Origin: Planctomycetota bacterium
GTDB taxonomy: Bacteria > Planctomycetota > Phycisphaerae > WQYP01
Direction: 5' to 3'
Length of the DNA: 64,000 bases
Assembly (NCBI GenBank): GCA_021785435.1
Contig: JAJYFE010000001.1
Coordinates: forward strand, 9,497-73,496
The translations under genes were made by a program, and so were the position numbers. The notes below the pieces were generated by a model. That model ran no database searches. It was not told where the DNA came from and worked only from the letters and a program-made list of their open reading frames with translations. This document shows, in pieces, positions 1,735 to 51,677 of this stretch (position 1 is the stretch's first letter; each line of letters opens with the position of its first letter).

Positions 1735-2430
1735 TCACGCGGATTTTATTTTACCGTCACACAGACAAACCACACGGTCGGCCAGGGCGGCCACCGTCGG
1801 CTCGTGGGTGACCAGCAGAATACTTTGGCGGCGCTGGCGATGCAGGCGGGTAATCACCTCCAGGATGCCGCGCCCGGTGGGAGGGTCCAGGTTGCCGGTG
1901 GGTTCGTCGGCCAGGACCAGGGCGGGATCGTTAATCAGGGCGCGGGCGATGGCCACGCGCTGGCGTTCGCCGCCGGAAAGTTCCGCGGGGCGATGTTGAA
2001 GGCGTTGGCCTAGCCCCAGATCCGCCAGCAACTCCAAGGCCCGTTTCTGCCGTGGCCGGGAAGGGACCAAAGCCCGCCACCACGGCGCCGCGACCATGGC
2101 CGGCAGCAGAACGTTTTCCAGCACATTCAACTCCGGCAGCAGGTGGTAGAGTTGAAACACAAAGCCGAAGGCCTGGTTGCGCAGGCGATGCCGCCGACTG
2201 CGGGAAAGCCGGCAGATATTCTGCCCGCGGAAGCTGGTGCACCCGCCATCGGCATGATCCAAGGCCCCGGCGATATGCAGCAGCGTGCTCTTGCCGGAGC
2301 CGGAGGCGCCCATCAACGCCACAAATTCGCCTTCGCGCACGGCCAGGCTCGCGCCGGTGAGCACGGGGATCGTCGCCGGGCCGAGTCGGAAGGTTTTGTG
2401 AAGCGCAATAAGTTCGAGCAGGTTGTCCAT
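1735..2430 (-). CDS. ABC transporter ATP-binding protein (LolD/FtsE/MacB-type)
   Basis: Walker A GASGSGKST, ABC signature [15 protein letters not shown], Walker B LVLADEPT. Confidence 0.85.
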   Translation of the reverse strand: MDNLLELIALHKTFRLGPATIPVLTGASLAVREGEFVALMGASGSGKSTLLHIAGALDHADGGCTSFRGQNICRLSRSRRHRLRNQAFGFVFQLYHLLPELNVLENVLLPAMVAAPWWRALVPSRPRQKRALELLADLGLGQRLQHRPAELSGGERQRVAIARALINDPALVLADEPTGNLDPPTGRGILEVITRLHRQRRQSILLVTHEPTVAALADRVVCLCDGKIKSA

Positions 2431-4355
2431 TATCGTTCGTGCGGGTCTTCCAGGTAGGTGTAGCCCTGCAGGCCGGATTCATAGAACCGCAGCAGCAGGG
2501 CGGATTCTTCCACGGAGATCGTTTTTTCGCGGACGGCGCGCTCCACGTCGCGGCGCATCCGGGCCAGGAGCTCTTCGCCGTTGAATTGCACGTATTGCAG
2601 CACCTCGCGGACCGTGTCGCCGCGGACCACTTCTTCGACATGGATTTCGCCGGTTTCGTCCATGTGCACGTGGACGGCATTGGTGTCGCCGAGAAGATTG
2701 TGCAGATCGCCCAGGATTTCCTGGTAAGCCCCCACCAGGAAGGCGCCCAGGAAATAATCACCGCCGGTGTATTCATGCAATTCGAGGGTTTTTTTCACGT
2801 CGTGCAAATCAATGAAGTAGTCGACTTTGCCGTCGCTGTCACAAGTAATGTCGGCGAGGATGCCGCGGCGCAGCGGGGCCTCATTGAGGCGGTGGATGGG
2901 CAGGATGGGGAAAAGCTGGCGGATGGCCCAGCTGTCGGGCATGGACTGAAAAAGAGAGAAGTTGCAGAAATAGGTGTCGCAGAGATGGGCCTCCAGGGCC
3001 TCGAAATCTTCGCTGACATCCCGGGTTTCCCGGAGCATCTTGAGAATTTTGGCGCACACGCCCCAGAACAGTTTTTCCGCATAGCTGCGCAGCTCCAGGC
3101 TTAAGTAACCGAGATTAAACAGGTTCAACGCCTCATCCCGCTGCTGCATGGCGTCGTGGTAAATTTCCGCGTAATTTTTCTTGCTTACATCCCGGTGTGC
3201 CTCGAAGAGATCCTTGACCGGCTGGGGAACTTCCTCGCCGGCGGGCAACTCCGGCGGCACGTCGAAACTGTCAAAACCGCTGACCCCCAGCACGTTGAAA
3301 ACCAACAGGCTGTGATAAGCCACCATGGCCCGACCGCTCTCGGTGATGATCGTCGGAGGGGGTACCGCGCATTCGTCGCAAACGGTTTTAATGCGAAAGA
3401 TCACATCCCCGGCGTACTCGGCCAGGGTGTAATTGACGGAAGATTCAAAGTTGGTCTGGCTGCCGTCATAATCCACGCCCAGTCCGCCGCCGACATCGAT
3501 ATATTTCATTCCGGCCCCGGCGCGGGTCAGTTCGGCGTAGATGCGGGCGGCCTCGTTGAGGGCGTTCTTGATGGTGCGAATATTGGTGATCTGGCTGCCC
3601 AGGTGGAAATGCAGCAGCTGCAGACAATCCGCCATGTTCCGCTGTTTGAGATAATCGAGCGCCTGGAGGATTTCCGCGACGAACAGGCCAAACTTGCTTT
3701 TCGCCCCGCCGGAAGACTCCCAGCGCCCGCTGCCGCGCGCCGCGAGCTTGACGCGCACGCCCAGGCGGGGGCGCACGGAATGCTTTTCGCCGTATTTGGT
3801 CAGCAGTTCCAGCTCCGTGAATTTTTCCACCACGGGGATGACGGTCTTGCCGAGTTTCTGGGCCAGCACCACCGTTTCGATGAATTCATCGTCTTTAAAG
3901 CCGTTGCAGATAATGGGTGTGTCGCGGCCGTTGGTCAGGGCCAGCACGACGAGCAGCTCCGGCTTGCTGCCCGCTTCCAGGCCCCAGCCGTAGGATTGGC
4001 CGGCCTGCAGGATTTCCTCCACCACGTGGCGCTGCTGATTGACCTTGATGGGGTAGACGCAGATGTGGCGGCCCGGGTAGCCATTTTCCTGGATGGCCGC
4101 CTGAAAGGCGCTGTGGATCTCCGCCAGGCGGTGTTTCAGAATGTCGCTGAAACGCAGCAACGTGGGCAGTTGGATGCCGCGGAGGATCAGATCATCGATG
4201 AGTTTTTTCAGATCGATGGCCCGGGCGGGGTTTTTGTCCGGGTGCACCGCGACATGCCCGGCCGCGTTAATGGAAAAATAACCTTTACCCCATTTCTGGA
4301 TGTGATACAGCTCGGCGGAATCCTGCACCGTCCAGGGTTTGAGCATGTCCATGTC
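2430..4355 (-). CDS. speA: Biosynthetic arginine decarboxylase SpeA. The start is taken at MDMLKPWTV; the ORF extends upstream to 4439 only by reading through the repeat element
   Basis: Full-length similarity to PLP-dependent biosynthetic ADC (about 640 aa). The upstream extension translates a (GCTCCT)n repeat as SRSRSRS/EQEQ. Confidence 0.85.
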   Translation of the reverse strand, partial: DMDMLKPWTVQDSAELYHIQKWGKGYFSINAAGHVAVHPDKNPARAIDLKKLIDDLILRGIQLPTLLRFSDILKHRLAEIHSAFQAAIQENGYPGRHICVYPIKVNQQRHVVEEILQAGQSYGWGLEAGSKPELLVVLALTNGRDTPIICNGFKDDEFIETVVLAQKLGKTVIPVVEKFTELELLTKYGEKHSVRPRLGVRVKLAARGSGRWESSGGAKSKFGLFVAEILQALDYLKQRNMADCLQLLHFHLGSQITNIRTIKNALNEAARIYAELTRAGAGMKYIDVGGGLGVDYDGSQTNFESSVNYTLAEYAGDVIFRIKTVCDECAVPPPTIITESGRAMVAYHSLLVFNVLGVSGFDSFDVPPELPAGEEVPQPVKDLFEAHRDVSKKNYAEIYHDAMQQRDEALNLFNLGYLSLELRSYAEKLFWGVCAKILKMLRETRDVSEDFEALEAHLCDTYFCNFSLFQSMPDSWAIRQLFPILPIHRLNEAPLRRGILADITCDSDGKVDYFIDLHDVKKTLELHEYTGGDYFLGAFLVGAYQEILGDLHNLLGDTNAVHVHMDETGEIHVEEVVRGDTVREVLQYVQFNGEELLARMRRDVERAVREKTISVEESALLLRFYESGLQGYTYLEDPHER

Positions 4356-4364
4356 GCCTTGCTC

Positions 4365-5440
4365 CTGCTCCTCACTTCTCAACTTCTCACTCCTGCTCCT
4401 GCTCCTGCTCCCGCTCCTGATCGAAAGGCCCTCGATCAAGAGCAGGAGCAGGAGCAGGAGCAGGAAAGATTACGCTCCGGAAACGCCGCTGCCATATTCG
4501 CGGCCGGAATTCCGCTTGATCAGCCCCATGAGCATACGCACGATTCGTTGCAGCCGTTCCATGTCGCCTCGCTCCCGCTGCTCACCCCCGCTCCTACTCC
4601 TGCTCCTGCTCCCGCTCCTGATCGAAAGGCCCTCGATCAAGAGCACGAGCAGGAGCACGAGCAGGAGCAGGAAAGATTACGCTCCGGAAACGCCGCCGCC
4701 ATATTCGCGGCCGGAATTCCGCTTGATCAGGCCCATGAGCATACACACGATTCATTGCAGCCGTTCCATGTCGCCTCGCTCCCGCTGCTCACCCCCACTC
4801 CCGCTCCTACTCCTACTCCTGCTCCTGATCGAAAGGCCCTCGATCAAGAGCAGGAGCATGAGCAGGAGCAGGAATGATTACGCTCCGGAAACGCCGCTGC
4901 CATATTCGCGGCCGGAATTCCGCTTGATCAGCCCCATGAGCATACGCACGATTCGTTGCAGCCGTTCCTTGCCGGGGTGGATCCGCTCTCGTGCCAGCCT
5001 CCTCCGGGAAACGAGAACGTCCAGGCCGGCGGCGCACTCGAGCGCGGAGCCGCGGGCAATGTCCAAGAATCGGCAGCGATCCTTGGGAGCATATTTGCCG
5101 TTGCCCTCGGCGATGTTCAGTAAGATCGAGCTTGACGCCCGATCCAACTGCTCTTTCACCTCGCCCCAGCGCACGCCGGCTTCCGTGAGTTCGGACAGCC
5201 AGGCGACGAACGCCAGGGCTTCTTGGTAAACGTCCAGCTTCTCGTGATCAAACCAGCACTTTTCGGGCGAACTCATCAGGCCTGACCCTTCGCCTTGCTC
5301 CTGCTCCTGACTTCTCACTCCTGCTCCTGCTCCTGATCCTGCTCGAAAGGCCCTCGATCAAGAGCAGGAGCACGAGCACGAGCAGGAAAGATTACGCTCC
5401 GGAAACGCCGCTGCCATATTCGCGGCCGGAATTCCGCTTA
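4365..5440. repeat. Tandem array of four roughly 205-bp units. Each unit is a hairpin with a roughly 23-bp stem (CTCCTGCTCCTGCTCCTGATCGA-AAGGCCCT-TCGATCAAGAGCAGGAGCAGGAG), flanked by (GCTCCT)n, followed by a copy of the last roughly 100 bp of the four-helix-bundle gene
   Basis: Hairpins centred near 4425, 4630, 4838 and 5345. The 3'-end segment GATTACGCTCCGGAAACGCCGCTGCCATATTCGCGGCCGGAATTCCGCTT occurs at about 4470, 4675, 4875 (the real gene end) and 5390. Confidence 0.85.
4878..5276 (-). CDS. Four-helix-bundle protein of the 23S rRNA intervening-sequence protein family (PF05635/TIGR02436; Avd-like fold)
   Basis: Motif FDHEKLDVYQEALAFVAWL...LLNIAEGNGK...FLDIARGSALECAAGLDVL is typical of the family. 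Start MSSPEKCWF; the ORF extends to 5318 through the repeat. Confidence 0.7.
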   Translation of the reverse strand: MSSPEKCWFDHEKLDVYQEALAFVAWLSELTEAGVRWGEVKEQLDRASSSILLNIAEGNGKYAPKDRCRFLDIARGSALECAAGLDVLVSRRRLARERIHPGKERLQRIVRMLMGLIKRNSGREYGSGVSGA

Positions 5441-7066
5441 AGCCCCGCCCGCCGCGGCGGCGCCAGCAAGTGCCGGCAGAATGAACGTTTTGACCACTTC
5501 AATGCCCGAATCCCCGCGCAAGGCCGCCAGGCATTCCGGCGGGGGCACGGTATCGAGTTTGAGCAGCATCAGGGCCTTGTCGCCCTTGCGGCTGATGGTC
5601 ATGTCCGCGATATTGATGTTCCACCGGCCAAAGGTGGCGCCGACGAAACCGATCACGCCCGGCCGATCCTTATTGACCACGAGGGTCATGGGACCGGCGG
5701 GCACCATGTCCATCCAGTAGCCCTTGAGCGCCAGCACCCGGGGCAGATTATCCGCGAAAACCGTCCCGATCATGGCGTGCCGGGTGCCGTTTTCCGTGAT
5801 TTCCAGTTCCAAGCCGTGTTGCAAGGCCCGCTGCTGCGCCTGGCCCATGGTTTCGTGGCCCAGGGCGATGCCCCGCTGTTCGGCCAAATGCAGCACATTG
5901 ACCAGGTTGGGAGTTTCGGCGATGTGCCCCCGCAGCAGTTCCATGACCGCCAGCCGCTGCAAGGTCGGCGCGATGCGGCGTGGTAGTTCACCGTTGGTGC
6001 GCAGGGTCACCGCAGCGAAGCCTTTTTCCACGATCGCCCCCAACATCACGCCCATGCGCCGAGCCAGATCTGCGTACGCCTTTTCCGGTTCGGACAAATT
6101 CAGGTCGATGCCGCCGGCATTCACGGCGCCGGCAATGCCCTGGCCGCGAAGGTAGAGCAGCAGTTCCTGTACGGCGTCCCGGGCCACAGCCTGCTGGGCC
6201 TCGGCGGTGCTGGCGCCCAGGTGCGGGGTCAGTAAAACCTTCGAGCCCAGGGCGAAGAGGGGGTTGGTCTTGGCCGGTGGCTCGCTGGCATAAACATCCA
6301 GGGCGGCGCCGGCGACGTGCCCGGATTCAATGGCCGCGGCCAGCGCGGTTTCATCAATCACGCCGCCCCGGGCGCAGTTGATCAGGCGCACGCCCGGGCG
6401 GCAGCGGCGCAGGCGGGCCGCGTCCAGCAGGCCGCGGGTTTCGCCGCCCGGCACATGCACGGTGATGAAGTCGCATTGGGGCAACAGGGCGTCCAGGTCT
6501 TTCACCAGGGGAACCTGGCCATCCAGGCCGGTCTCGGCGAAAAAGAACGGATCGTAGGCCAGCACTTTCATCTCCAGCCCCAGCGCCCGTTTGGCGACGG
6601 CGCGGCCAATGCGGCCGAAGCCGATGACGCCCAGCGTTTTTCCCGCCAATTGGGCGCCGAGAAAGCGCCCCCGCTCCCATTGCCCGCCGCGGACATGGGC
6701 GTCGGCGGCGGCCAACTGCCGGGCCAGACCCAGCATCAGGGCCAGGGCATGTTCGGCGGTGGTGATGGTGTTGGCGTCGGGCGTGTTCATTACCAGCACC
6801 CCGGCGCGGGTGGCGGCCTCCACGTCCACGTTATCGACGCCCACCCCGGCCCGGGCGATGGCCTTGAGCCGCCCCGGTTGGGCCAGTTCCGCCGCGGTGA
6901 TTTTCACCCCGCTGCGGATCAACACGCCGTCATATTTGCCGATTTCCCGCGCCAGTTCGCCGGCCTGCCACCGCGGATGATCGGTGGCTTCGACGTCCGG
7001 CTGCTGGCGCAGCAGCGCCAGTCCTTCCGGGGCCAGTTTATCCGCGGCCAGAATTTTAAACATCAA
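5438..7066 (-). CDS. serA: D-3-phosphoglycerate dehydrogenase (long form with a C-terminal ACT domain)
   Basis: 2-hydroxyacid dehydrogenase NAD-binding GxGxxG (GVIGFGRIGRAVA), catalytic-domain similarity, roughly 540 aa length with ASB/ACT C-terminus. Confidence 0.9.
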   Translation of the reverse strand: MMFKILAADKLAPEGLALLRQQPDVEATDHPRWQAGELAREIGKYDGVLIRSGVKITAAELAQPGRLKAIARAGVGVDNVDVEAATRAGVLVMNTPDANTITTAEHALALMLGLARQLAAADAHVRGGQWERGRFLGAQLAGKTLGVIGFGRIGRAVAKRALGLEMKVLAYDPFFFAETGLDGQVPLVKDLDALLPQCDFITVHVPGGETRGLLDAARLRRCRPGVRLINCARGGVIDETALAAAIESGHVAGAALDVYASEPPAKTNPLFALGSKVLLTPHLGASTAEAQQAVARDAVQELLLYLRGQGIAGAVNAGGIDLNLSEPEKAYADLARRMGVMLGAIVEKGFAAVTLRTNGELPRRIAPTLQRLAVMELLRGHIAETPNLVNVLHLAEQRGIALGHETMGQAQQRALQHGLELEITENGTRHAMIGTVFADNLPRVLALKGYWMDMVPAGPMTLVVNKDRPGVIGFVGATFGRWNINIADMTISRKGDKALMLLKLDTVPPPECLAALRGDSGIEVVKTFILPALAGAAAAGGA

Positions 7067-25899: not shown

Positions 25900-25983
25900 A
25901 TTTTTGTAGCGCCGGATTTCCGGCCTGTGGACTCACATCGGCCGCCGGTTGGAAAGCCGGCGCTACAAGTTGGAGGTGCTAAC

Positions 25984-30055: not shown

Positions 30056-30217
30056 ATGAGAAGCATTGCGGCCGGGGTGTTTAAGACGCACTGTCTGGCG
30101 CTCAGGGACGTGGTTCGCACCAAGCGACAAAGCGTCGTGATTACCAAAGGTGGACGGCCGATCAGCCAAGCTGACGCCGTTGGGCGGCAAGCCCGATGAT
30201 ATACTACACAGCCCGTA
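30056..30217 (+). pseudogene. Orphan Phd/YefM-family antitoxin remnant, apparently frameshifted or truncated, with no toxin partner
   Basis: MRSIAAGVFKTHCLALRDVVRTKRQSVVITKGGRPI matches the Phd/YefM N-terminus. Frame 0 ends prematurely at 30199, while a +1 shift continues AKLTPLGGKPDDILHSPY* to 30217. Confidence 0.5.
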
Positions 30218-30239
30218 TTGAGACGTACCTTTCGTCAGA

Positions 30240-30268
30240 GTAGAAGCGGCGTCGCGCCGCTTTTCTTG
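30240..30268 (+). terminator. Rho-independent terminator (AAGCGGCG-TCG-CGCCGCTT followed by TTCTT)
   Basis: Perfect 8-bp GC-rich stem plus a T-rich tail, seen directly. Confidence 0.6.
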
Positions 30269-30306
30269 GGCCAGATGCACGCTGGCCTGGCCTCTGGAAT
30301 GCATCA

Positions 30307-31521
30307 TTAATAGCCGTGTGCGGTATGCCTACGGGTCTCGACCATTTCCACCAATTGCCAATAAATCGCGCTCTGCATAATTCCAGAAATGGGCAGGACC
30401 TTGACGTCATAGCCTTTCAACTTGAGCAACGCATCATCCACCGCCCAATAAGGATTCAGGTAGATGTGGCGGGGATTGGTGGTGAACGAAGCCGGCGGCG
30501 GGACGCTGCAGGTGAGGATGCAGGCGCCGCCGCCGCGGAGAATCGAATCGATGGGCGGTTCGTTGAAGAGTTGATAACCGAGAACCAGCGCTGTGTCGCC
30601 GGGACCCGATGGCACGGGCGGATGGGCCGACTGAAACCAGGGGGGAGTAGGCCCATTGCGCATCTCGGCGGGAAACATGTGGGCTTCGTATAACACGTCA
30701 ATGGTATGACCGGAACGATGGGCCGCACGGATCCACCGCGCGGCACGCCAGAGGCCACGGCGATCATGGCGCCAGACTTGGCGCAAAGCTGCCGCCACGC
30801 CGGTGAGATAGCGCTGGCCCAGATTCGCGGCGGACGCCGGCGTAACGGTGCTGCGCTGTTGAAAGGCGGCGCCCATCAGTTTAGCGTCGCGTGCCCGCCC
30901 GCCAGGTCGGCCATAGCTTTGATACATGTTGGGCATCCGGCCGTCGTCCACACAGGCTGTGATAAATTCAGCCGTCCAAGCCCACATTCCGATGACGTTA
31001 CTGACGGATGTGGTGCGGATGGACGGGCGCCCTGACTTCCATGTCCCGGGGGCCGTGGACCGCGGGTAAACAGCAGCGAACCGCGCCGGCGGATTCGCCG
31101 GCGGGATACCGGTAAAGAAAATCACGACGCTGTGGGCTTCACGTGCTTTAAGGAGCAGACGGGTCAGCGCCGGTCCCGGCGTGGGGCGTGCGGCTGCCGC
31201 CAGGACTGTGTCCTTCGGACCCAGCACGGTCCCCGGATGATAGGACTTTATCAGCATCAGCCCGCCGGAACGGCCAACGGCCTCCGCGACAAAACTTTGT
31301 TGGCCGCCGGCCACGTACAAATGACCGCCGTGGATGACTTTGCTTGCGGCCTGTTTGGCCGTTGTTTGCAGAGCGGGTAAGGCGGCGCGCCATTGCCCAA
31401 CTCGGTGCAGCAGGCGGGGAATATAAGCTGCAGCGCCCCCGGAGCCGCGCGCCGTGCTGGCCAGCCAGAGCATGGTCCCAACGACCAAGGTGGCCGATAA
31501 AATCCATTTCAAATGCTTCAT
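30307..31521 (-). CDS. Hypothetical secreted protein (signal peptide MKHLKWILSATLVVGTMLWLASTARG)
   Basis: ORF with an N-terminal signal peptide when started at M98; no family recognised. Confidence 0.45.
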   Translation of the reverse strand: MKHLKWILSATLVVGTMLWLASTARGSGGAAAYIPRLLHRVGQWRAALPALQTTAKQAASKVIHGGHLYVAGGQQSFVAEAVGRSGGLMLIKSYHPGTVLGPKDTVLAAAARPTPGPALTRLLLKAREAHSVVIFFTGIPPANPPARFAAVYPRSTAPGTWKSGRPSIRTTSVSNVIGMWAWTAEFITACVDDGRMPNMYQSYGRPGGRARDAKLMGAAFQQRSTVTPASAANLGQRYLTGVAAALRQVWRHDRRGLWRAARWIRAAHRSGHTIDVLYEAHMFPAEMRNGPTPPWFQSAHPPVPSGPGDTALVLGYQLFNEPPIDSILRGGGACILTCSVPPPASFTTNPRHIYLNPYWAVDDALLKLKGYDVKVLPISGIMQSAIYWQLVEMVETRRHTAHGY

Positions 31522-32260: not shown

Positions 32261-34393
32261 CTAATGCACCCGCTGGCCCGGGGTGGCGTTTGATTCCACG
32301 GACAGCAACGCGAGATCCGTCCCACCGGCGCCCGCCGCCAGGATCATTCCATCGCTGACGCCGAATTTCATTTTCCGGGGCGCCAGATTGGCGCACACAA
32401 TCACCTGCCGACCCACCAACTGCTCTGCCGAATACGCCTTTTTTATCCCCGCCAGCACCGTGCGACGGCCCAAGGCCCCGAGATCCAGTTCCAACCGCAT
32501 AAGTTTTTCGCTGGCTTGCACCGGCTCGGCGGAAAGCACCCGGGCCACGCGCAAATCCACCGCGTTAAATTGTTCGATGGTACAGGTGGCAGCCAGTGGC
32601 TCCGCCGTCACCGGGGCCTGGGCGATGGCCGACGGCGCGCCCGTTGGCCCCAAGGGAGATTTCGGTGACTCGTTCCCGGCGCGCCAGGACCCGCCTGAGG
32701 TGGGGCGATCCGACGTTGCCGCCACCGGCCCCGCGACCGCGGCGGGTGCCACAGGGGTTTGATTTTCCCGCACCATAACCTCAATCTTCCTTTCTTCGAT
32801 GCGCCCCGCCAAATGTTCAAATGGCGCCAGACGCCGCGGCGAAAGAACCTGCTCCACGTCAGCCCACGCCAACGGACCAAGCCCCAAACATTGTTCCACC
32901 TTTTCCGCGAACCGCGGCAGGATCGGCTTCAAATAAATCGTCAGGATTCGCCCGCATTCCAGCGCCGTTGACCATACGCTTCGCGCGGCCTCGGGGGCGG
33001 TTTTCACCATCGACCAGGGCGCCTGTTCTTCGACATATTTATTAGCCATATCCGCCAGCGCGCAAATCCGCCGGGTGACACCCGCGTAATTCCGATTTTC
33101 ATAGTCGGTGGCGATTTCCGGCGCCGCGGTGCGAAAATCCGCCAGCATCGCGCCCGCCGCCGGAGCCGCCGCGCCGCTGCGCCCTTCCAGCAACTTGGCC
33201 AGCGGCCCGGCGGCGCGGCTGATCAGATTGGCCAGTTTTCCCACCAGTTCGCTGTTGACCCGCGCTATAAAGTCGCCGAAATGTAGATCGATATCCGCCG
33301 GTGTTGCCGTCAGGCGCGTGGCGAAATAATAACGCAACGCCTGGGGGTCCAGATGGCGGGCGTATTGCTCGGCGCTGATAAACGTGCCGCGGCTTTTCGA
33401 CATCTTGCCGCCGTTGATGGTCAAGTGCCCATGTACGCATAACTTTCCCGGCGGCGGCAGGCCGGCGCCCAGCAGCATCGCGGGCCAGAACAAGGCGTGA
33501 AAATAGATAATGTCCTTGCCGATGAAGTGATAAGTTTCCCGGCCTGGCGCCCGCCAAAAATCCTCCGCCTCCGCCGGCTCCGCCCGCAGATAATGGGCCA
33601 GCGAGGCCAAGTAGCCGATGGGTGCGTCGAGCCAGTTGTAGAAATATTTTTCCGTCTGGCCTGGGATCGGGAAACCGAAAAAGGGCGCATCCCGCGAAAT
33701 GTCCCAATCTTTCAACCGGTCGCCAAACCATTCCTGGAGTTTGTTGGCCACCGCGGCGTCGACCATGCCCCCGCGGATCAACCCGCCCAGCTGGTCCCGA
33801 AAATCCTCCAGTTGCAGGAATAGGTGGGGGCTGGATTTGCGCCGCGGTGTTGCTCCACTGACCACGCTGCGCGGATCGATCAAGTCGGTGGGGGCATAAT
33901 GTTTTCCGCAGGCATCGCAGGAATCCCCGTATTGATCCGCCGCGCCGCAGGCCGGACATGTTCCTTTGATGAAACGGTCGGGCAGAAAAATGTTTTCCAC
34001 CGGATCAAAAAACTGCTCCACCGGGCGCTGCGCGATGTGACCGCCCTGGCGCAGGCGCTCATAGAACCGTTCGCACAAAACGCGATTTTCAGGTGAATGC
34101 GTGGAATAGTAACTGTCGAAAACGATGTCAAAACGGGCGAAGTCCGCCTGGTGCTCCTGGTTCATCCGGGCGATGAATTGCTCGGGCGCCAGTTTTTCCT
34201 GCCGGGCCCGCAGCATGATGGGCGTGCCGTGCGCGTCGTCGCCACAAAGATACACGACATCATGGCCGCGCAGGCGTTGAAAACGCACCCAGATATCGGC
34301 CTGAATATAACCGACGAGATGGCCGATATGAATAGCACCGTTGGCGTAAGGCAACGCCGACGTAACCAGAATTTGTCGCTTGGCCAGGGCCAT
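32261..34393 (-). CDS. metG: Methionine--tRNA ligase with a C-terminal tRNA-binding (EMAP/Trbp111-like) domain
   Basis: HIGH motif (AIHIGHLVGY), KMSKS motif, zinc knuckles CPACGAAD...CDACG and C-terminal OB-fold. Confidence 0.9.
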   Translation of the reverse strand: MALAKRQILVTSALPYANGAIHIGHLVGYIQADIWVRFQRLRGHDVVYLCGDDAHGTPIMLRARQEKLAPEQFIARMNQEHQADFARFDIVFDSYYSTHSPENRVLCERFYERLRQGGHIAQRPVEQFFDPVENIFLPDRFIKGTCPACGAADQYGDSCDACGKHYAPTDLIDPRSVVSGATPRRKSSPHLFLQLEDFRDQLGGLIRGGMVDAAVANKLQEWFGDRLKDWDISRDAPFFGFPIPGQTEKYFYNWLDAPIGYLASLAHYLRAEPAEAEDFWRAPGRETYHFIGKDIIYFHALFWPAMLLGAGLPPPGKLCVHGHLTINGGKMSKSRGTFISAEQYARHLDPQALRYYFATRLTATPADIDLHFGDFIARVNSELVGKLANLISRAAGPLAKLLEGRSGAAAPAAGAMLADFRTAAPEIATDYENRNYAGVTRRICALADMANKYVEEQAPWSMVKTAPEAARSVWSTALECGRILTIYLKPILPRFAEKVEQCLGLGPLAWADVEQVLSPRRLAPFEHLAGRIEERKIEVMVRENQTPVAPAAVAGPVAATSDRPTSGGSWRAGNESPKSPLGPTGAPSAIAQAPVTAEPLAATCTIEQFNAVDLRVARVLSAEPVQASEKLMRLELDLGALGRRTVLAGIKKAYSAEQLVGRQVIVCANLAPRKMKFGVSDGMILAAGAGGTDLALLSVESNATPGQRVH

Positions 34394-34511
34394 CCGCCGC
34401 TCCGCATCCCGGGGAAACGATGCATTGTAACGCCCGCGCTCCGAGGAGCAACGCGGCGGTTGCGGTAGTGCCCCCTAATCCCGCGGCGCAGTTCCCTGGG
34501 GCTGTGACAAG

Positions 34512-34565
34512 TTGTTCCTGGTTCCCGCTCTTGCTCCCGCTCCCGCCCTTGATTGAGGGCTTTCG
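34512..34565. repeat. Fifth, diverged copy (opposite orientation) of the long-stem hairpin element, about 120 bp upstream of the metG start
   Basis: The reverse complement reads CTCCTGATCGAAAGCCCTCAATCAAGGGCGGGAGCGGGAGCAAGAGC, matching CTCCTGATCGAAAGGCCCTCGATCAAGAGCAGGAGCAGGAGC. Confidence 0.7.
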
Positions 34566-35146
34566 ATCAGGAGCATGACCGGCAGCGCGAGCAAGAACGG
34601 CGATGATGCCATCGCTCCCGTTTAGCGGTCAGTCCCGATCCGCGGATCGGGACTGGATTTTCAGGGCAGTTCCTCATGCCCCTACGGAGCACCTGCAGAG
34701 CATGAAAATCGGTCCAATCCGGTGCCCGGCGGTCCCGACACATCGGGATAGCCGGTGCTGTTGAGTCAGGAGACAAAATCCCGATGCGGCAGGAGACGCC
34801 CATCGGGTTCCCTATCGCCGCTGCTGATTCATCACCGCGCCACGGCGCCACGACGGACGGACGATTTACTCCCGATAGCCCCGGTGGACACACTCCAATG
34901 TGCTGTGTTTTTATGTAGTAGGCACACTCCGATGTGCCGTAGGCCTCGCCTTCCCGCCGGTCCAAACGGGCTTGTGGCCCGACGGCATGTAGGATCATGC
35001 CTGCTACGTTGCGCCGTTGGCATCCCGCTTCGCGTCGTCGCGGCTTTGCGTGACAGCGTCCGCGATCCCATGATTCATTCCGCGTTCCTACTAAGAAAAA
35101 TCGCCACGCCCGCCCCGAAAGCCGCGGGCAAGGGGGCGGAGCGCGG

Positions 35147-35460
35147 CTCAGAAAAGCATGTTGAAGCCGGCCGTCCGGAAGTGCCGGTCGTTGGTGAAGG
35201 CGTCCGTTATACCGAGGCGGCGCATGACGGCGAAGGAGACATGGTCGGCAATGCCGGCACCCGTTGCGCCACCGTTCTCGTAGGCCGCCCAAGCCGTCTC
35301 CTAATCTTCGGTCCGGGGCGTTAGCAGGCGCCCCGAGGCACCCAACGCCTTTCGGGCCTGGGCGACCAAGCCGCGGTAGGCCCGCCGGGCCGCGGCGTGC
35401 CATGGGTCGATCCGGTCCCACTGTGCCAGCAACCCCACGGTGTCCAAGAAGACGACACTC
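35147..35460 (-). pseudogene. VapC-like PIN-domain toxin pseudogene (in-frame TAG at 35301-35303)
   Basis: N-terminal part MSVVFLDTVGLLAQWD... and C-terminal part ...IADHVSFAVMRRLGITDAFTNDRHFRTAGFNMLF are PIN-like, separated by an in-frame amber codon. The middle is shortened and the conserved Glu is missing. Confidence 0.55.
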
Positions 35461-35675
35461 ATGGTTGGTGCTCATTGTGGCGTTGGGACACGTCGGTTTC
35501 TCCGGAAGCCAAGGACTGCCCCAGCGATTCGTAGATGCGTTGCTGCGCCGCGCGGTCGGCCTGGTCGTCGTCGAGCACCCTCAGGTCAAACGCCACGCGT
35601 GACCGGTCCGGAAGGAAGGCCGAGCCGTTCCAACGGACGAAAGATGCCGTTTTCATAAATTGCTTGAATCGTCAT
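35459..35675 (-). pseudogene. DUF104 (AF2212-PG-type) VapB-like antitoxin pseudogene (frameshifted)
   Basis: MTIQAIYENGIFRPLERLGLP is the DUF104 N-terminal consensus, preceded by GGAGG. The frame breaks at about 35590 and continues as ...VAFDLRVLDDDQAD... in another frame. Confidence 0.55.
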
Positions 35676-36039
35676 ACTTCGGCCTCCGCGCCTACCGGCG
35701 GGGCGGCGGTCCGGCCGTCCCTCATTAATATAATACGGAGCATCGGTGGCATCCGCAGTCAGGGCCTGCGCAAGCCCGGGACGTGACAATTTTTTGCAGA
35801 GGGCCGAACACTATGCCACAGGCACGTAAGATTGGAACCATCGCGGCTGGGGCCAGCGGACCGCCCCTTGGGGGGCGGCCTTCCAGGCGGCCATGGTCTT
35901 GGATCGAGTCGGGCCGATCGCCCCAGTTTACCCGCTGCCGCGGGGCGACTCGCTGCGGTGAGATGCCCGACCCCAGGGGGCCTTTCAACCATCTCTCAAT
36001 CTTGAAACGCGCGGCATACCCCGAAAAATGATCCCACCA

Positions 36040-36500
36040 CCGCATTTGCGACGGCCACTTGACACTTGACATGCGGCTCGCTAGGATGTATTGTTGTTAT
36101 CGTTAACAGACCAATAGGTGACGTTAACATATAGAGTGTGGCCGGTCCTGGAAACGGCGGCCTAAGAGGCTCTTGATCATGCCGGTGACGCTTCGCGACA
36201 TTGCGGATAAAGTCGGGGGCTGCATGATGATGGTGTCGCGGTACGGCGACACCGCCCGATTTGCGACGGGATTGGAACCGGCACTTAACACTTGACATAC
36301 GGCTCGCTAAGATGTATTGTTGTTATCGTTAACAGACCAATAGGTGACGTTAACATAGAGAATGTGGCCAGTCCCGGAAACGGCGGCCTAAGAGGCTCTT
36401 AATCATGCCGGTGACGCTTCGCGACATTGCGGATAAAGTCGGGGTCTCCATGATGACGGTGTCGCGCTCCCTGAACGGTGAAGCGCCGTCGATGGTTTCG
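36040..36500 (+). repeat. Tandem direct duplication (roughly 229 bp, two copies) covering the promoter, operator, RBS and first roughly 20 codons of the LacI-family regulator
   Basis: CACTTGACA(T/C)(G/A)CGGCTCGCTA(G/A)GATGTATTGTTGTTATCGTTAACAGACCAATAGGTGACGTTAACAT...ATGCCGGTGACGCTTCGCGACATTGCGGATAAAGTCGGGG occurs at about 36055 and about 36284. Confidence 0.85.
36292..36334 (+). promoter_or_regulatory. Sigma70-like promoter (TTGACA-17-TATTGT) with an overlapping LacI-type palindromic operator TGTTATCGTTAACA
   Basis: -35 at 36292-36297, -10 at 36315-36320, operator at 36321-36334; a duplicate is at 36066-36107. Confidence 0.5.
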
Positions 36501-37703
36501 CCCGCCTTGAGGCAGCGCATCCGGAAGGCGGCGGAACAATTAGGCTACCATCCGAATGTCAACGCCCGGGCGTTGGCCCGCAACCAATCGATGCTGATCG
36601 GCGTGCTTTATAACGGCGTCAATTTCCTTCAGAGCATGCAATTTCTGGCCGGTTTGCAGGAGGTATGCCTCGCCCGCGATTACGCCCCGCTTTTCTTAAG
36701 CCATCAGAATGCCGCCATGGAGCGGGCCAATCTGCGCCTGTGCCTGCGGCGCAAGGTCGATGCGCTGATCGTCAACCCGTGGGTGGAAAACGAGGATCCT
36801 GACCCATCGCGAATGGGCCGGGACTTCCAGCCGTCGGCATCACCCTACCGGAAAATCGTAAAGTCCGGCTTGCCGATGACCGAGGTTTTTGGACGGCGGG
36901 TTCCCGGGGTTTGCTCCGTGCGCTACGACCACCTTGCGGAGGGCAAGCTGGCCGCCAGGCATTTGATTGAGCACGGCCACCGGCGAATTGTGCTGTTCAC
37001 CCACGCCTGGTACCGGGCCGTGGAAAAAATACCGGGCTTGTGTTTTGACGCCTATGAACAATGGCAGGGCTATGCCGCCGAGATGCGCCGCATCGGCGCC
37101 GAGCCGGTCGTCGTGGCGCACCCACTGACCTTGCAGCCAACCATCCGCAGCGATCCGATGGCATTCCACCAAGCCGCCATGGAGTCCGTCCGCGGCGTGT
37201 TCGATCATCCGGCTGCGCCCACCGCGGTCCTGTGCTACTCGGCGTACCAGGCCCTGGCGGTGCTGAAAATAGCGCAGGCTCGCGGGATCCACGTGCCGAC
37301 CGAGCTGTCCCTTGTCTCCGGCAACGACTTTCCATTCGCCTGGCCTGACGGCCAGCGTCTCACCTGCATTGTCCGGGATCCGACGGAGGCTGGGCGCGTT
37401 GCGGCGAAAACGGTGTTCGCCCAACTGGACACCGGCACCGCGACAGACGCTGCCATCGCGCCGACCCTTCAGCCGGGTGAAACAGTCGCGGACCTAAAAG
37501 CTCAGGCGGTGAAGACGGCACCGCGCGGTTACGGCAAGACTATAACCGGTCAGAGAGTAATCCCCATGCAGACCGATGGCCGGCAGTTTAGTCGCCCGCG
37601 GCGACCCGTGGCGAACGCGATCCGCCGACGCGGTAAACAAGATGGACCGCCCAGGCGCCAAGAACGCTGGGATCAAGCTTTGGTAATGTCAGGAAGCGTC
37701 TGA
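36405..37703 (+). CDS. LacI-family transcriptional regulator (about 80-aa C-terminal tail beyond the usual length, containing a dispersed-repeat motif)
   Basis: N-terminal HTH LRDIADKVGVSMMTVSRSLNG and periplasmic-binding-fold core. No stop until 37703, although the family is usually about 340 aa. Confidence 0.75.
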   Translation: MPVTLRDIADKVGVSMMTVSRSLNGEAPSMVSPALRQRIRKAAEQLGYHPNVNARALARNQSMLIGVLYNGVNFLQSMQFLAGLQEVCLARDYAPLFLSHQNAAMERANLRLCLRRKVDALIVNPWVENEDPDPSRMGRDFQPSASPYRKIVKSGLPMTEVFGRRVPGVCSVRYDHLAEGKLAARHLIEHGHRRIVLFTHAWYRAVEKIPGLCFDAYEQWQGYAAEMRRIGAEPVVVAHPLTLQPTIRSDPMAFHQAAMESVRGVFDHPAAPTAVLCYSAYQALAVLKIAQARGIHVPTELSLVSGNDFPFAWPDGQRLTCIVRDPTEAGRVAAKTVFAQLDTGTATDAAIAPTLQPGETVADLKAQAVKTAPRGYGKTITGQRVIPMQTDGRQFSRPRRPVANAIRRRGKQDGPPRRQERWDQALVMSGSV

Positions 37704-51105: not shown

Positions 51106-51677
51106 AGGCCTACCTACCTTCTTAAGATGTCTATCGTCGCGGATCCGCCCACGCCGATTCCCGCACGCCGCCGTCGCGAAGCGCGCCGAAGCCTCTGCCC
51201 CACGCCCGCTGCACCCAACGCCAAAACGACCCGTCAACTTCCTCTTAAAATAACAACTCGCCAAGAAAAAGGGCGACCTGAAGGGACCGGATGGCGACTC
51301 GGTGGCGTTGCCGCCACGAGCGTAAATGGATCTGCGTAGCGCGAACCAGTCCCCCGGGACACCGCATTTTAACGCGGTGAAGGGTGCATGACAGATTTGG
51401 CGCCCGTGCCGTTCCCAGTGCGCCCGTTTTGCGCAGCGAGGTAAGGACGGGACGTGATTGTACCGCACACGGCTATTAATGATCTATTCCAGAGGCTGGG
51501 CCAGCGTGCAACGGGCCCAAAAAAGCGGCGGGACGCCGCTTCTACTTTGACGAATGGTACGTCTCAATAGGAGCGGTGTGTCGTATATCATAGCCCGGCG
51601 GTCGCCGCGGGCGACTAAACTGCAGCGACGGGTGACGCCGGGCGAACTACCCCAGCCCGTGAACGGTTACGCGAAAC

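Follow-up and report, generated by a model that had tools for sequence, protein, structure and literature searches.

A long-stem hairpin recurs in this DNA, and several of its copies stand shortly upstream of the start codons of minus-strand genes. Is it a signal that belongs to these genes, or is it part of an element that happens to lie beside them? The first-pass annotation of the window (the whole stretch of 64,000 nucleotides analyzed here) considered it a dispersed, very stable palindrome, either mobile with an insertion preference for 5' leaders or a shared cis-regulatory or RNA-processing site.

Copies of the hairpin in the window

With up to three mismatches allowed, the pattern given in the first-pass annotation matched the plus strand exactly at 4414, 4615 and 4822 and with two mismatches at 5336, and the same search of shuffled sequence gave 0 matches. 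The recurring hairpin is thus real and is represented by four strong copies, named A to D in Table 1, and by one diverged and decayed copy. All four strong copies lie within one minus-strand locus, in which the order is serA, a remnant with hairpin A, the four-helix-bundle (4HB) gene with hairpin B, a remnant with hairpin C, a remnant with hairpin D and, finally, speA.

Table 1 Positions of the genes, gene remnants, hairpins and tandem repeat considered in the analysis.
Feature	Positions	Strand	Remarks
speA (biosynthetic arginine decarboxylase)	2430..4352	-	downstream host gene; profile match
207-bp tandem repeat	4388..4968		2.9 copies, 91% matches; Tandem Repeats Finder
Hairpin D	4390..4466	-	32 positions: 29 WC, 3 G·U, 0 A·C
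Tandem unit 1, mini-ORF MERLQRIVRMLMGLIKRNSGREYGSGVSGA*	4470..4562	-	ATG + last 29 4HB codons; 100% to residues 104-132
Hairpin C, tandem copy	4585..4673	-	38 positions: 30 WC, 6 G·U, 0 A·C
Tandem unit 2, mini-ORF remnant	4677..4769	-	ATG + last 29 4HB codons; tblastn residues 104-132, 90%
Hairpin B	4791..4881	-	directly 3' of 4HB stop; 39 positions: 28 WC, 8 G·U, 0 A·C
4HB gene, cassette cargo	4878..5276	-	132 aa; PF05635 23S_rRNA_IVP; TIGR02436
Hairpin A	5313..5387	-	between serA stop and 4HB gene; 31 positions: 23 WC, 3 G·U, 1 A·C
4HB-gene 3'-end remnant, LKRNSGREYGSGVSGA*	5395..5442	-	16 codons; tblastn residues 117-132, 94% identity
serA (phosphoglycerate dehydrogenase)	5438..7066	-	upstream host gene; profile match
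metG (methionyl-tRNA synthetase)	32261..34393	-	host gene nearest the solo copy
Solo decayed hairpin copy	34522..34597	+	~129 nt upstream of metG ATG (34393); no adjacent 4HB gene or remnant

The arms of the hairpins are hexamer repeats, (CCUGCU)n and (AGCAGG)n. In sense RNA each hairpin consists of a (CCUGCU)n arm, the conserved apex GAUCGAGGGCCUUUCGAUC and an (AGCAGG)n arm, and 31-39 positions are stacked; in the window the stems measure 30-39 bp and the hairpins 75-91 nt. The sense strand of hairpin A is spelled (CCUGCU/CGUGCU)n, apex GAUCGAGGGCCUUUCGAGC, (AGGAUC/AGGAGC)n, and variant hexamers inside the arms (CGUGCU, CAUGCU) mostly produce mismatches that are not compensated. On the sense (minus) strand, hairpins D, C, B and A fold with -78.4, -84.6, -75.0 and -60.5 kcal/mol, with z-scores against shuffles of -8.6, -9.1, -9.3 and -4.65, respectively, and folding is 11 kcal/mol more favorable on the gene-sense than on the antisense strand. 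The description of the element as a very stable hairpin is thus appropriate for these four copies (-60 to -85 kcal/mol), but not for the fifth, which barely surpasses its shuffles (z of -1.3 on the plus strand and -3.1 on the minus strand). When the whole serA-speA spacer is folded at minimum energy, arms of different copies pair with each other. At gathering score, Rfam 15 gave 0 matches in the window and 0 in 12 related loci. In E-value mode, only sub-gathering matches appeared, nearly all of them to eukaryotic miRNA-precursor models, together with one weak match to the isrG sRNA, and these are due to the generic shape of a long hairpin.

The decayed copy was recovered with blastn of the 220-nt unit against the window, with 80% identity over 76 nt (E of 2e-13) in the opposite orientation. 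The first-pass annotation had correctly recognized a diverged fifth copy upstream of metG. The range it gave, 34512-34565, spans just the 5' arm and the apex, as the element reaches to about 34597. It also called this copy inverted, a label that is weakly supported, since the element is palindromic and its identity in the same orientation as the other copies is 76%. The copy has a 1-nt loop deletion and a decayed 3' arm, and two NCBI MAG assemblies of the source organism carry it in identical form. No similar element was found in the metG upstream regions of more distant relatives, and neither tblastn nor the family HMM, run on six-frame translations, found a 4HB remnant beside it. Synteny gives no date for the solo copy, since no homology exists between the ORF before metG in the window and the protein that precedes metG in a relative. 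We infer that it is a dead solo remnant of the cassette hairpin described below.

The surroundings of this copy have features of their own. The ~2 kb upstream of metG (34394-36404) contain no convincing gene, and a 241-aa ORF found there has no Pfam match. A perfect 26-nt palindrome at 34630-34655 (CAGTCCCGATCCGCGGATCGGGACTG) is followed by ATTTT. At 36056-36466 there is a 226-bp tandem duplication (1.8 copies, 94% matches), which doubles a strong sigma-70-like promoter, TTGACA-17-TATTGT (10/12 matches), and overlaps the start of a LacI-family regulator gene (36405-37703). Elsewhere in the window, a sequence of ~130 nt occurs twice, at 30196-30325 and 51461-51591, with 88.6% identity and with a terminator-like hairpin, AAAAGCGGCGCGACGCCGCTTCT; the pair has no Rfam match at gathering score and may represent paralogous small RNAs. 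An unrelated inverted repeat, with 27-nt arms that are 81% complementary and an 11-nt loop, lies at 25904-25968, and short tandem arrays of a 13-bp unit, GCCCGGGGCTTCC, lie at 1476-1510 (2.7 copies) and 1567-1608 (3.2 copies).

The 4HB cassette and the serA-speA spacer

The four strong copies share more than the hairpin itself, as the 3' end of the 4HB gene precedes each of them: the full gene stands before hairpin B, and remnants of it stand before A, C and D. The gene matches PF05635 (E of 1.7e-20) and TIGR02436 (E of 4.3e-19), and its nearest structure is XCC0516, PDB 2GSC (E of 1.7e-8). The remnant before hairpin A abuts and overlaps the serA stop codon in a different frame. The 207-bp tandem repeat takes in the first three hairpin copies (D, C and B). 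Its unit consists of the 4HB 3' end, the hairpin, a Shine-Dalgarno sequence (SD) and an ATG, and its junction shows GGA microhomology. An exact look-up of the 30-aa mini-ORF returned no record. The hexamer arms, the 207-bp repeat and the 4HB 3' end before each hairpin had been missed by the first-pass annotation. The placements it gave relative to the starts of speA, the 4HB gene and metG were correct: the base of hairpin D (4390) lies 37 nt from the speA ATG (4352), that of hairpin A (5313) lies 36 nt from the 4HB ATG (5276), and the fifth copy lies about 129 nt from the metG ATG (34393). The purine-rich 3' side of hairpin D continues as GAGGAGCAGGAGCAAGGCGAC-AUG, which is the Shine-Dalgarno or ribosome-binding region of speA. 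The two flanks of the 4HB gene in the window are complementary to each other, with 58 matched pairs.

Consensus scans of 4250-5550 found 0 terminator-like sites with a U-tract and 0 sigma-70-like promoters, and excluded a terminator or promoter reading of the hairpins.

Two side effects on the neighboring genes should be mentioned. The hexamer arms (4353-4439 and 5277-5318) are free of stop codons, such that gene callers over-extend speA (669-671 aa vs 640) and the 4HB gene (146 aa vs 132); these over-extended ORFs are an annotation artefact that has spread into public protein sets (for example P0001, P0122 and L001 2548-4563). Moreover, the serA C-terminus (window 5438-5480) reads …ILPALAGAAAAGGA where that of relatives reads …LPGKES. 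This divergent end, together with the stop codon overlapping the 4HB remnant, suggests that the serA end was reshaped, either by the insertion or by a deletion that came after it.

Whether the cassette is an insertion can be judged from related contigs. For both speA and metG, the closest named relatives come from Phycisphaerae MAGs. On five related contigs (L086-L090), whose speA is 80-83% identical, serA adjoins speA with a spacer of 140-236 nt, and none of these spacers contains a 4HB gene, hexamer array or hairpin. The orthologous site is thus filled in the window and in L001 and empty in the five relatives, and the cassette in the window is therefore an insertion. Same-species assemblies differ further. 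Three of them (L001, L002, L095) carry a single hairpin between the 4HB gene and speA, while two others (L092, L093), which are 99.6-99.9% identical to the window, carry at least two tandem units and end inside the array; tandem unit 2 is seen again in these two independent assemblies. L096 has part of another 4HB gene, 42 codons or more, upstream of hairpin A. The arm hexamers likewise differ in number and spelling among same-species assemblies, and contigs break inside the array. These differences indicate tandem gain and loss of the unit of 4HB sequence and hairpin within a population.

The hairpin is thus very probably the foldback end-module of a small cassette that carries a 4HB gene of the 23S-rRNA-IVS-protein family. 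The cassette was inserted in the serA-speA spacer of a Phycisphaerae-like planctomycete and was then amplified locally in tandem, and the comparisons show that the hairpins stand in leaders as a consequence of the cassette's location. The suspicion that the element is mobile was therefore close to the mark, as it is absent in relatives and varies in copy number. The proposed preference for leaders, however, is not supported: rather than being independent insertions of a dispersed palindrome, two of the three 5' positions flank one inserted 4HB cassette, the extra copies are local tandem duplicates and the metG copy is a decayed solo remnant. The first-pass annotation had itself named restriction to one locus as speaking against its reading, and for the exact sequence this is nearly what was found, with 4 of 5 copies in one locus.

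Given these results, we regard it as very improbable that selection has kept the hairpin in the speA, 4HB and metG leaders, be it as a common cis-regulatory or RNA-processing signal or as a dispersed REP-like palindrome. In favor of this view, three copies precede a start codon by 36-130 nt on the transcribed strand, and the stems are very stable. Nonetheless, the speA and metG leaders of relatives are without the hairpin and no evidence supports a shared regulatory site, most of the stem is gone from the metG copy, and two copies precede mere 30-codon gene remnants. The motif CCTGMTCGAAAGN{0,1}CCCTCRATCAAG had no match in 185,579 species genomes or in JGI metagenomes, no Rfam family corresponds to it, and, at 75-90 nt with hexamer-repeat arms, the hairpins differ from REPs of 20-40 nt. 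Across the whole family considered below, finally, the arrays follow 4HB genes and not host start codons.

Related cassettes and their possible mode of action

Homologues of the 4HB protein number more than 7,900; the best among the matches listed are ~70-79% identical, and an alignment of 22 sequences has 68 invariant positions. We fetched 80 homologous loci from genome contigs, with several MAGs giving two or three loci. The loci span Isosphaerales, Gemmataceae, Pirellulaceae, Tepidisphaeraceae, Phycisphaerae, Verrucomicrobiota, Lentisphaerota and Kiritimatiellota. A period-6 detector found 95 hexamer arrays. Of these, 91 lie no farther than 300 nt from the end of a 4HB gene (47 kb in total) and 4 in the other 447 kb, and 2 of these 4 are the window's own tandem copies. 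The spelling of the hexamer depends on the lineage (GATTAG, GATTAC, GAGTAA, GATGAG or GATCAG, with GAGCAG in the window), such that a GA-N-N-A-N consensus is kept across phyla while the other positions drift. The array 5' of the 4HB gene is the reverse complement of the array 3' of it; most planctomycete loci present a purine-rich and then a pyrimidine-rich array, and verrucomicrobial and lentisphaeral loci present the reverse order.

The flanks of the 4HB gene are complementary, with 20 or more matched pairs, in 60 of 73 loci, and in some of these the number rises to 93-96. A locus's own flanks have a median of 41 matched pairs, compared with 20 when the flanks come from different loci and 11 when they are shuffled. 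Duplex energies across whole 200-nt flanks are inflated and were not counted as evidence. Some 20 further local hairpins with hexamer arms adjoin 4HB genes. The layout of the window, in which the gene stands between two hairpins, is also seen in a Gemmataceae locus (L017) and a Lentisphaerae locus (L065); in the former the order is hairpin, 4HB, hairpin, hairpin, and the purine arm is the SD of the next gene. As judged from the sequences, the comparison shows that the design of a predicted stem with an ORF in its loop recurs around homologous 4HB genes throughout the PVC superphylum, and the window hairpin is a lineage-specific spelling of this general feature. Searches of Rfam and of full-text literature (for family names, hexamers and PVC repeats) yielded no account of the arrays, and the cassette design is thus apparently both widespread in Planctomycetes, Verrucomicrobia and their relatives and undescribed.

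The near exclusive association of array and 4HB gene, the conservation of GA-N-N-A-N across phyla and the unusually high conservation of the protein would all be expected if the arrays were binding sites, repeated every 6 nt, of the encoded protein, by which it autoregulates, packages or mobilises its own RNA or DNA. The 4HB protein is homologous to pentameric S23p and to the Avd proteins of DGRs, and Avd family members bind nucleic acid and reverse transcriptase complexes. We nevertheless find this reading improbable, as solo arrays persist without the gene, and the same linkage is expected if the arrays are merely the ends of a gene-carrying element.

Whether the cassette acts as RNA was approached through the mismatches in the stems. 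On the gene-sense strand, G·U pairs outnumber A·C mismatches by 20 to 1 in the window and by 9 to 2 in L001 and L002. In other lineages the counts are 151 vs 133 in 60 long-range stems and 31 vs 23 in 22 local hairpins, so the bias is confined to the window lineage, and selection at the RNA level is not a general property of the cassettes. When referring to the 20:1 count, it should be considered that the window copies are related by descent, so that the number of independent events behind it is smaller; part of the excess could moreover stem from transcription-associated mutation bias. The G·U excess thus gives some, limited, support to the cassette acting as sense-strand RNA in the window lineage.

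We lean towards a composite explanation, namely a mobile, tandemly amplifying foldback cassette, the helices of which would be RNase III substrates and the purine arm of which would serve as the ribosome-binding site of the downstream gene. The cassette would be co-transcribed with the co-oriented host genes. Its 30-39-bp helices, perfect or with wobble pairs, or the long-range pairing of the flanks around the ORF, would then be cut by RNase III, by analogy with the intervening sequences (IVSs) of rRNA, and the cut would separate the cassette RNA from the serA and speA mRNA. The ribosome-binding site of the downstream gene would come from the purine-rich arm and the sequence that extends it, and such a supply would explain why the insertion is tolerated.

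In a purely DNA-level alternative, the arrays would be the long terminal inverted repeats of a non-autonomous foldback transposable cassette, the RNA structure would be incidental, and the local hairpin would represent two abutted element ends (a tandem-copy junction) or a mini-element lacking the ORF. We consider this somewhat unlikely as the whole story. Much of what was observed agrees with it. Gemmataceae paralogues from one MAG and Isosphaerales copies have sharp common ends, CTAGTGC...GCACTAG, at which the similarity stops, and their outer inverted repeats measure ~30 nt; the ends of the window's cassette are obscured by its tandem copies. Presence and absence differ between related genomes, units are gained and lost in tandem, and the G·U excess over A·C is missing outside the window lineage. 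Cassettes occur in both orientations relative to their neighbors, with ~20-30% of them not co-oriented with a neighboring gene, which amounts to a modest co-orientation (as based on heuristic ORF calls). Solo foldbacks without an ORF exist as well, namely the window's 34.5-kb copy and L057, which lies between two co-oriented genes.

Against the DNA-level alternative, the cassettes have been linked to no transposase or recombinase, and they show no clear target-site duplication; three loci (L009, L010, L012) show no consistent flanking duplication beyond the CTAG/TA that belongs to the element ends. The microsatellite-like hexamer number in the arms is unusual for ends recognised by a transposase, the window lineage has a strand-specific wobble bias, and the known relatives with an ORF in a stem, the rRNA IVSs, act as RNA. 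The DNA-level alternative is, however, largely compatible with the composite explanation and does not exclude it. Filled and empty sites, tandem amplification and sharp ends point to mobility at the DNA level, and, in Gemmataceae and Isosphaerales, the terminal inverted repeats at the sharp ends are suggestive of transposition in trans at the DNA level; the RNA and DNA levels may both apply.

At two verrucomicrobial loci (L066 2954-3420 and L054 1960-2460), a terminator-like hairpin, GGATGCGCC...GGCGCATC followed by TTTTT, was seen as a direct repeat on both sides of the cassette. It could represent a long target duplication or terminator-targeted insertion.

Two more specific mechanisms were dropped. 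Sequestration of the SD by an anti-SD was abandoned since the GAUUAN hexamers of other lineages have no SD character, and DGR-like A-mutagenesis of the variable hexamer position was abandoned since the other adenines are invariant.

Significance and comparison with known systems

To our knowledge, the 4HB S23p proteins and the origin of the rRNA IVSs have had no explanation since the 1990s. In a study of Coxiella, remnants of a transposition event are given as one hypothesis for IVS origin among several (PMC4990558). The present analysis shows that the design of an ORF in a stem also occurs apart from rRNA, with several copies per genome (a single MAG gave up to three of the fetched loci), and that it spans Planctomycetota, Verrucomicrobiota, Lentisphaerota and Kiritimatiellota. 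Complementary GA-N-N-A-N arrays form an easily searchable signature, so the question becomes testable in cultured strains. One could go further and consider the cassettes an unrecognised class of autonomous selfish foldback elements of ~0.55-0.7 kb in PVC bacteria, in which the 4HB protein, as the sole gene product, recognises its own arms, as RNA or DNA, and promotes spread or retention, and of which the ORF-bearing 23S IVSs are members that landed in rRNA. This remains speculative and we judge it unlikely; if true, it would give the PF05635 family a function and explain the origin of the IVSs. In practical terms, the cassettes break short-read assemblies and make gene callers over-extend neighboring ORFs, and they can replace the native promoters and leaders of housekeeping genes, as in the window, where the whole serA-speA spacer is replaced.

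Among known systems, the hairpins resemble intrinsic terminators in being G+C-rich stem-loops after a gene. They differ from them in that the stems are followed by AGUGAGAAG or GGGGGUGAGCAG instead of a U-tract and are 4-6 times longer than usual. As with REPs and BIMEs, the palindrome is extragenic, lies between co-oriented genes and could stabilise or process mRNA. REPs are described as 20-40 nt long, with GTAG/CGTC heads, tens to hundreds of dispersed copies and a link to the RAYT transposase (PMC3733652). The hairpins of the window are 75-91 nt long, have CCTGCT/AGCAGG arms, lack a GTAG/CGTC head and are linked to 4HB. There are 5 copies in two loci of the 64-kb window, 4 of them in one locus.

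FB transposons and MITEs have long terminal inverted repeats composed of short sub-repeats in variable number, and have derivatives without an ORF. The cassettes resemble them in the sub-repeat arms, the ORF-less foldbacks, the filled and empty sites and the local amplification, a likeness that is one of analogy and does not imply homology. Unlike FB elements, the cassettes are bacterial and carry a conserved 132-aa cargo gene.

The closest comparison is with the IVSs of 23S rRNA. ORF-bearing IVSs occur in Leptospira, Coxiella, Xanthomonas and Brucella; they sit at helix 9, 25 or 45 of the 23S rRNA and are removed from the pre-23S rRNA. The ORF belongs to the same family as that of the cassettes (PF05635/TIGR02436), and in the window and in 60 of the 73 loci it likewise stands between complementary long-stem flanks. 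The Coxiella IVS has a 28-bp terminal stem with the S23p ORF in the loop and is excised by RNase III, and it carries strain-variable tandem heptamers upstream of the ORF (PMC4990558). Both its stem of 28 bp and the cassette stems of 30-39 bp have lengths that suit RNase III, as judged for the cassette by geometry only, and the repeats beside the ORF, heptamers in the former and hexamers in the latter, vary between strains in both. The cassette differs from the IVSs in lying between protein-coding genes, with Rfam finding no rRNA in the window, and in having arms made almost wholly of hexamer repeats, with window flanks that also fold as local hairpins. Moreover, unlike IVSs, the cassettes occur in multiple copies per genome and in tandem.
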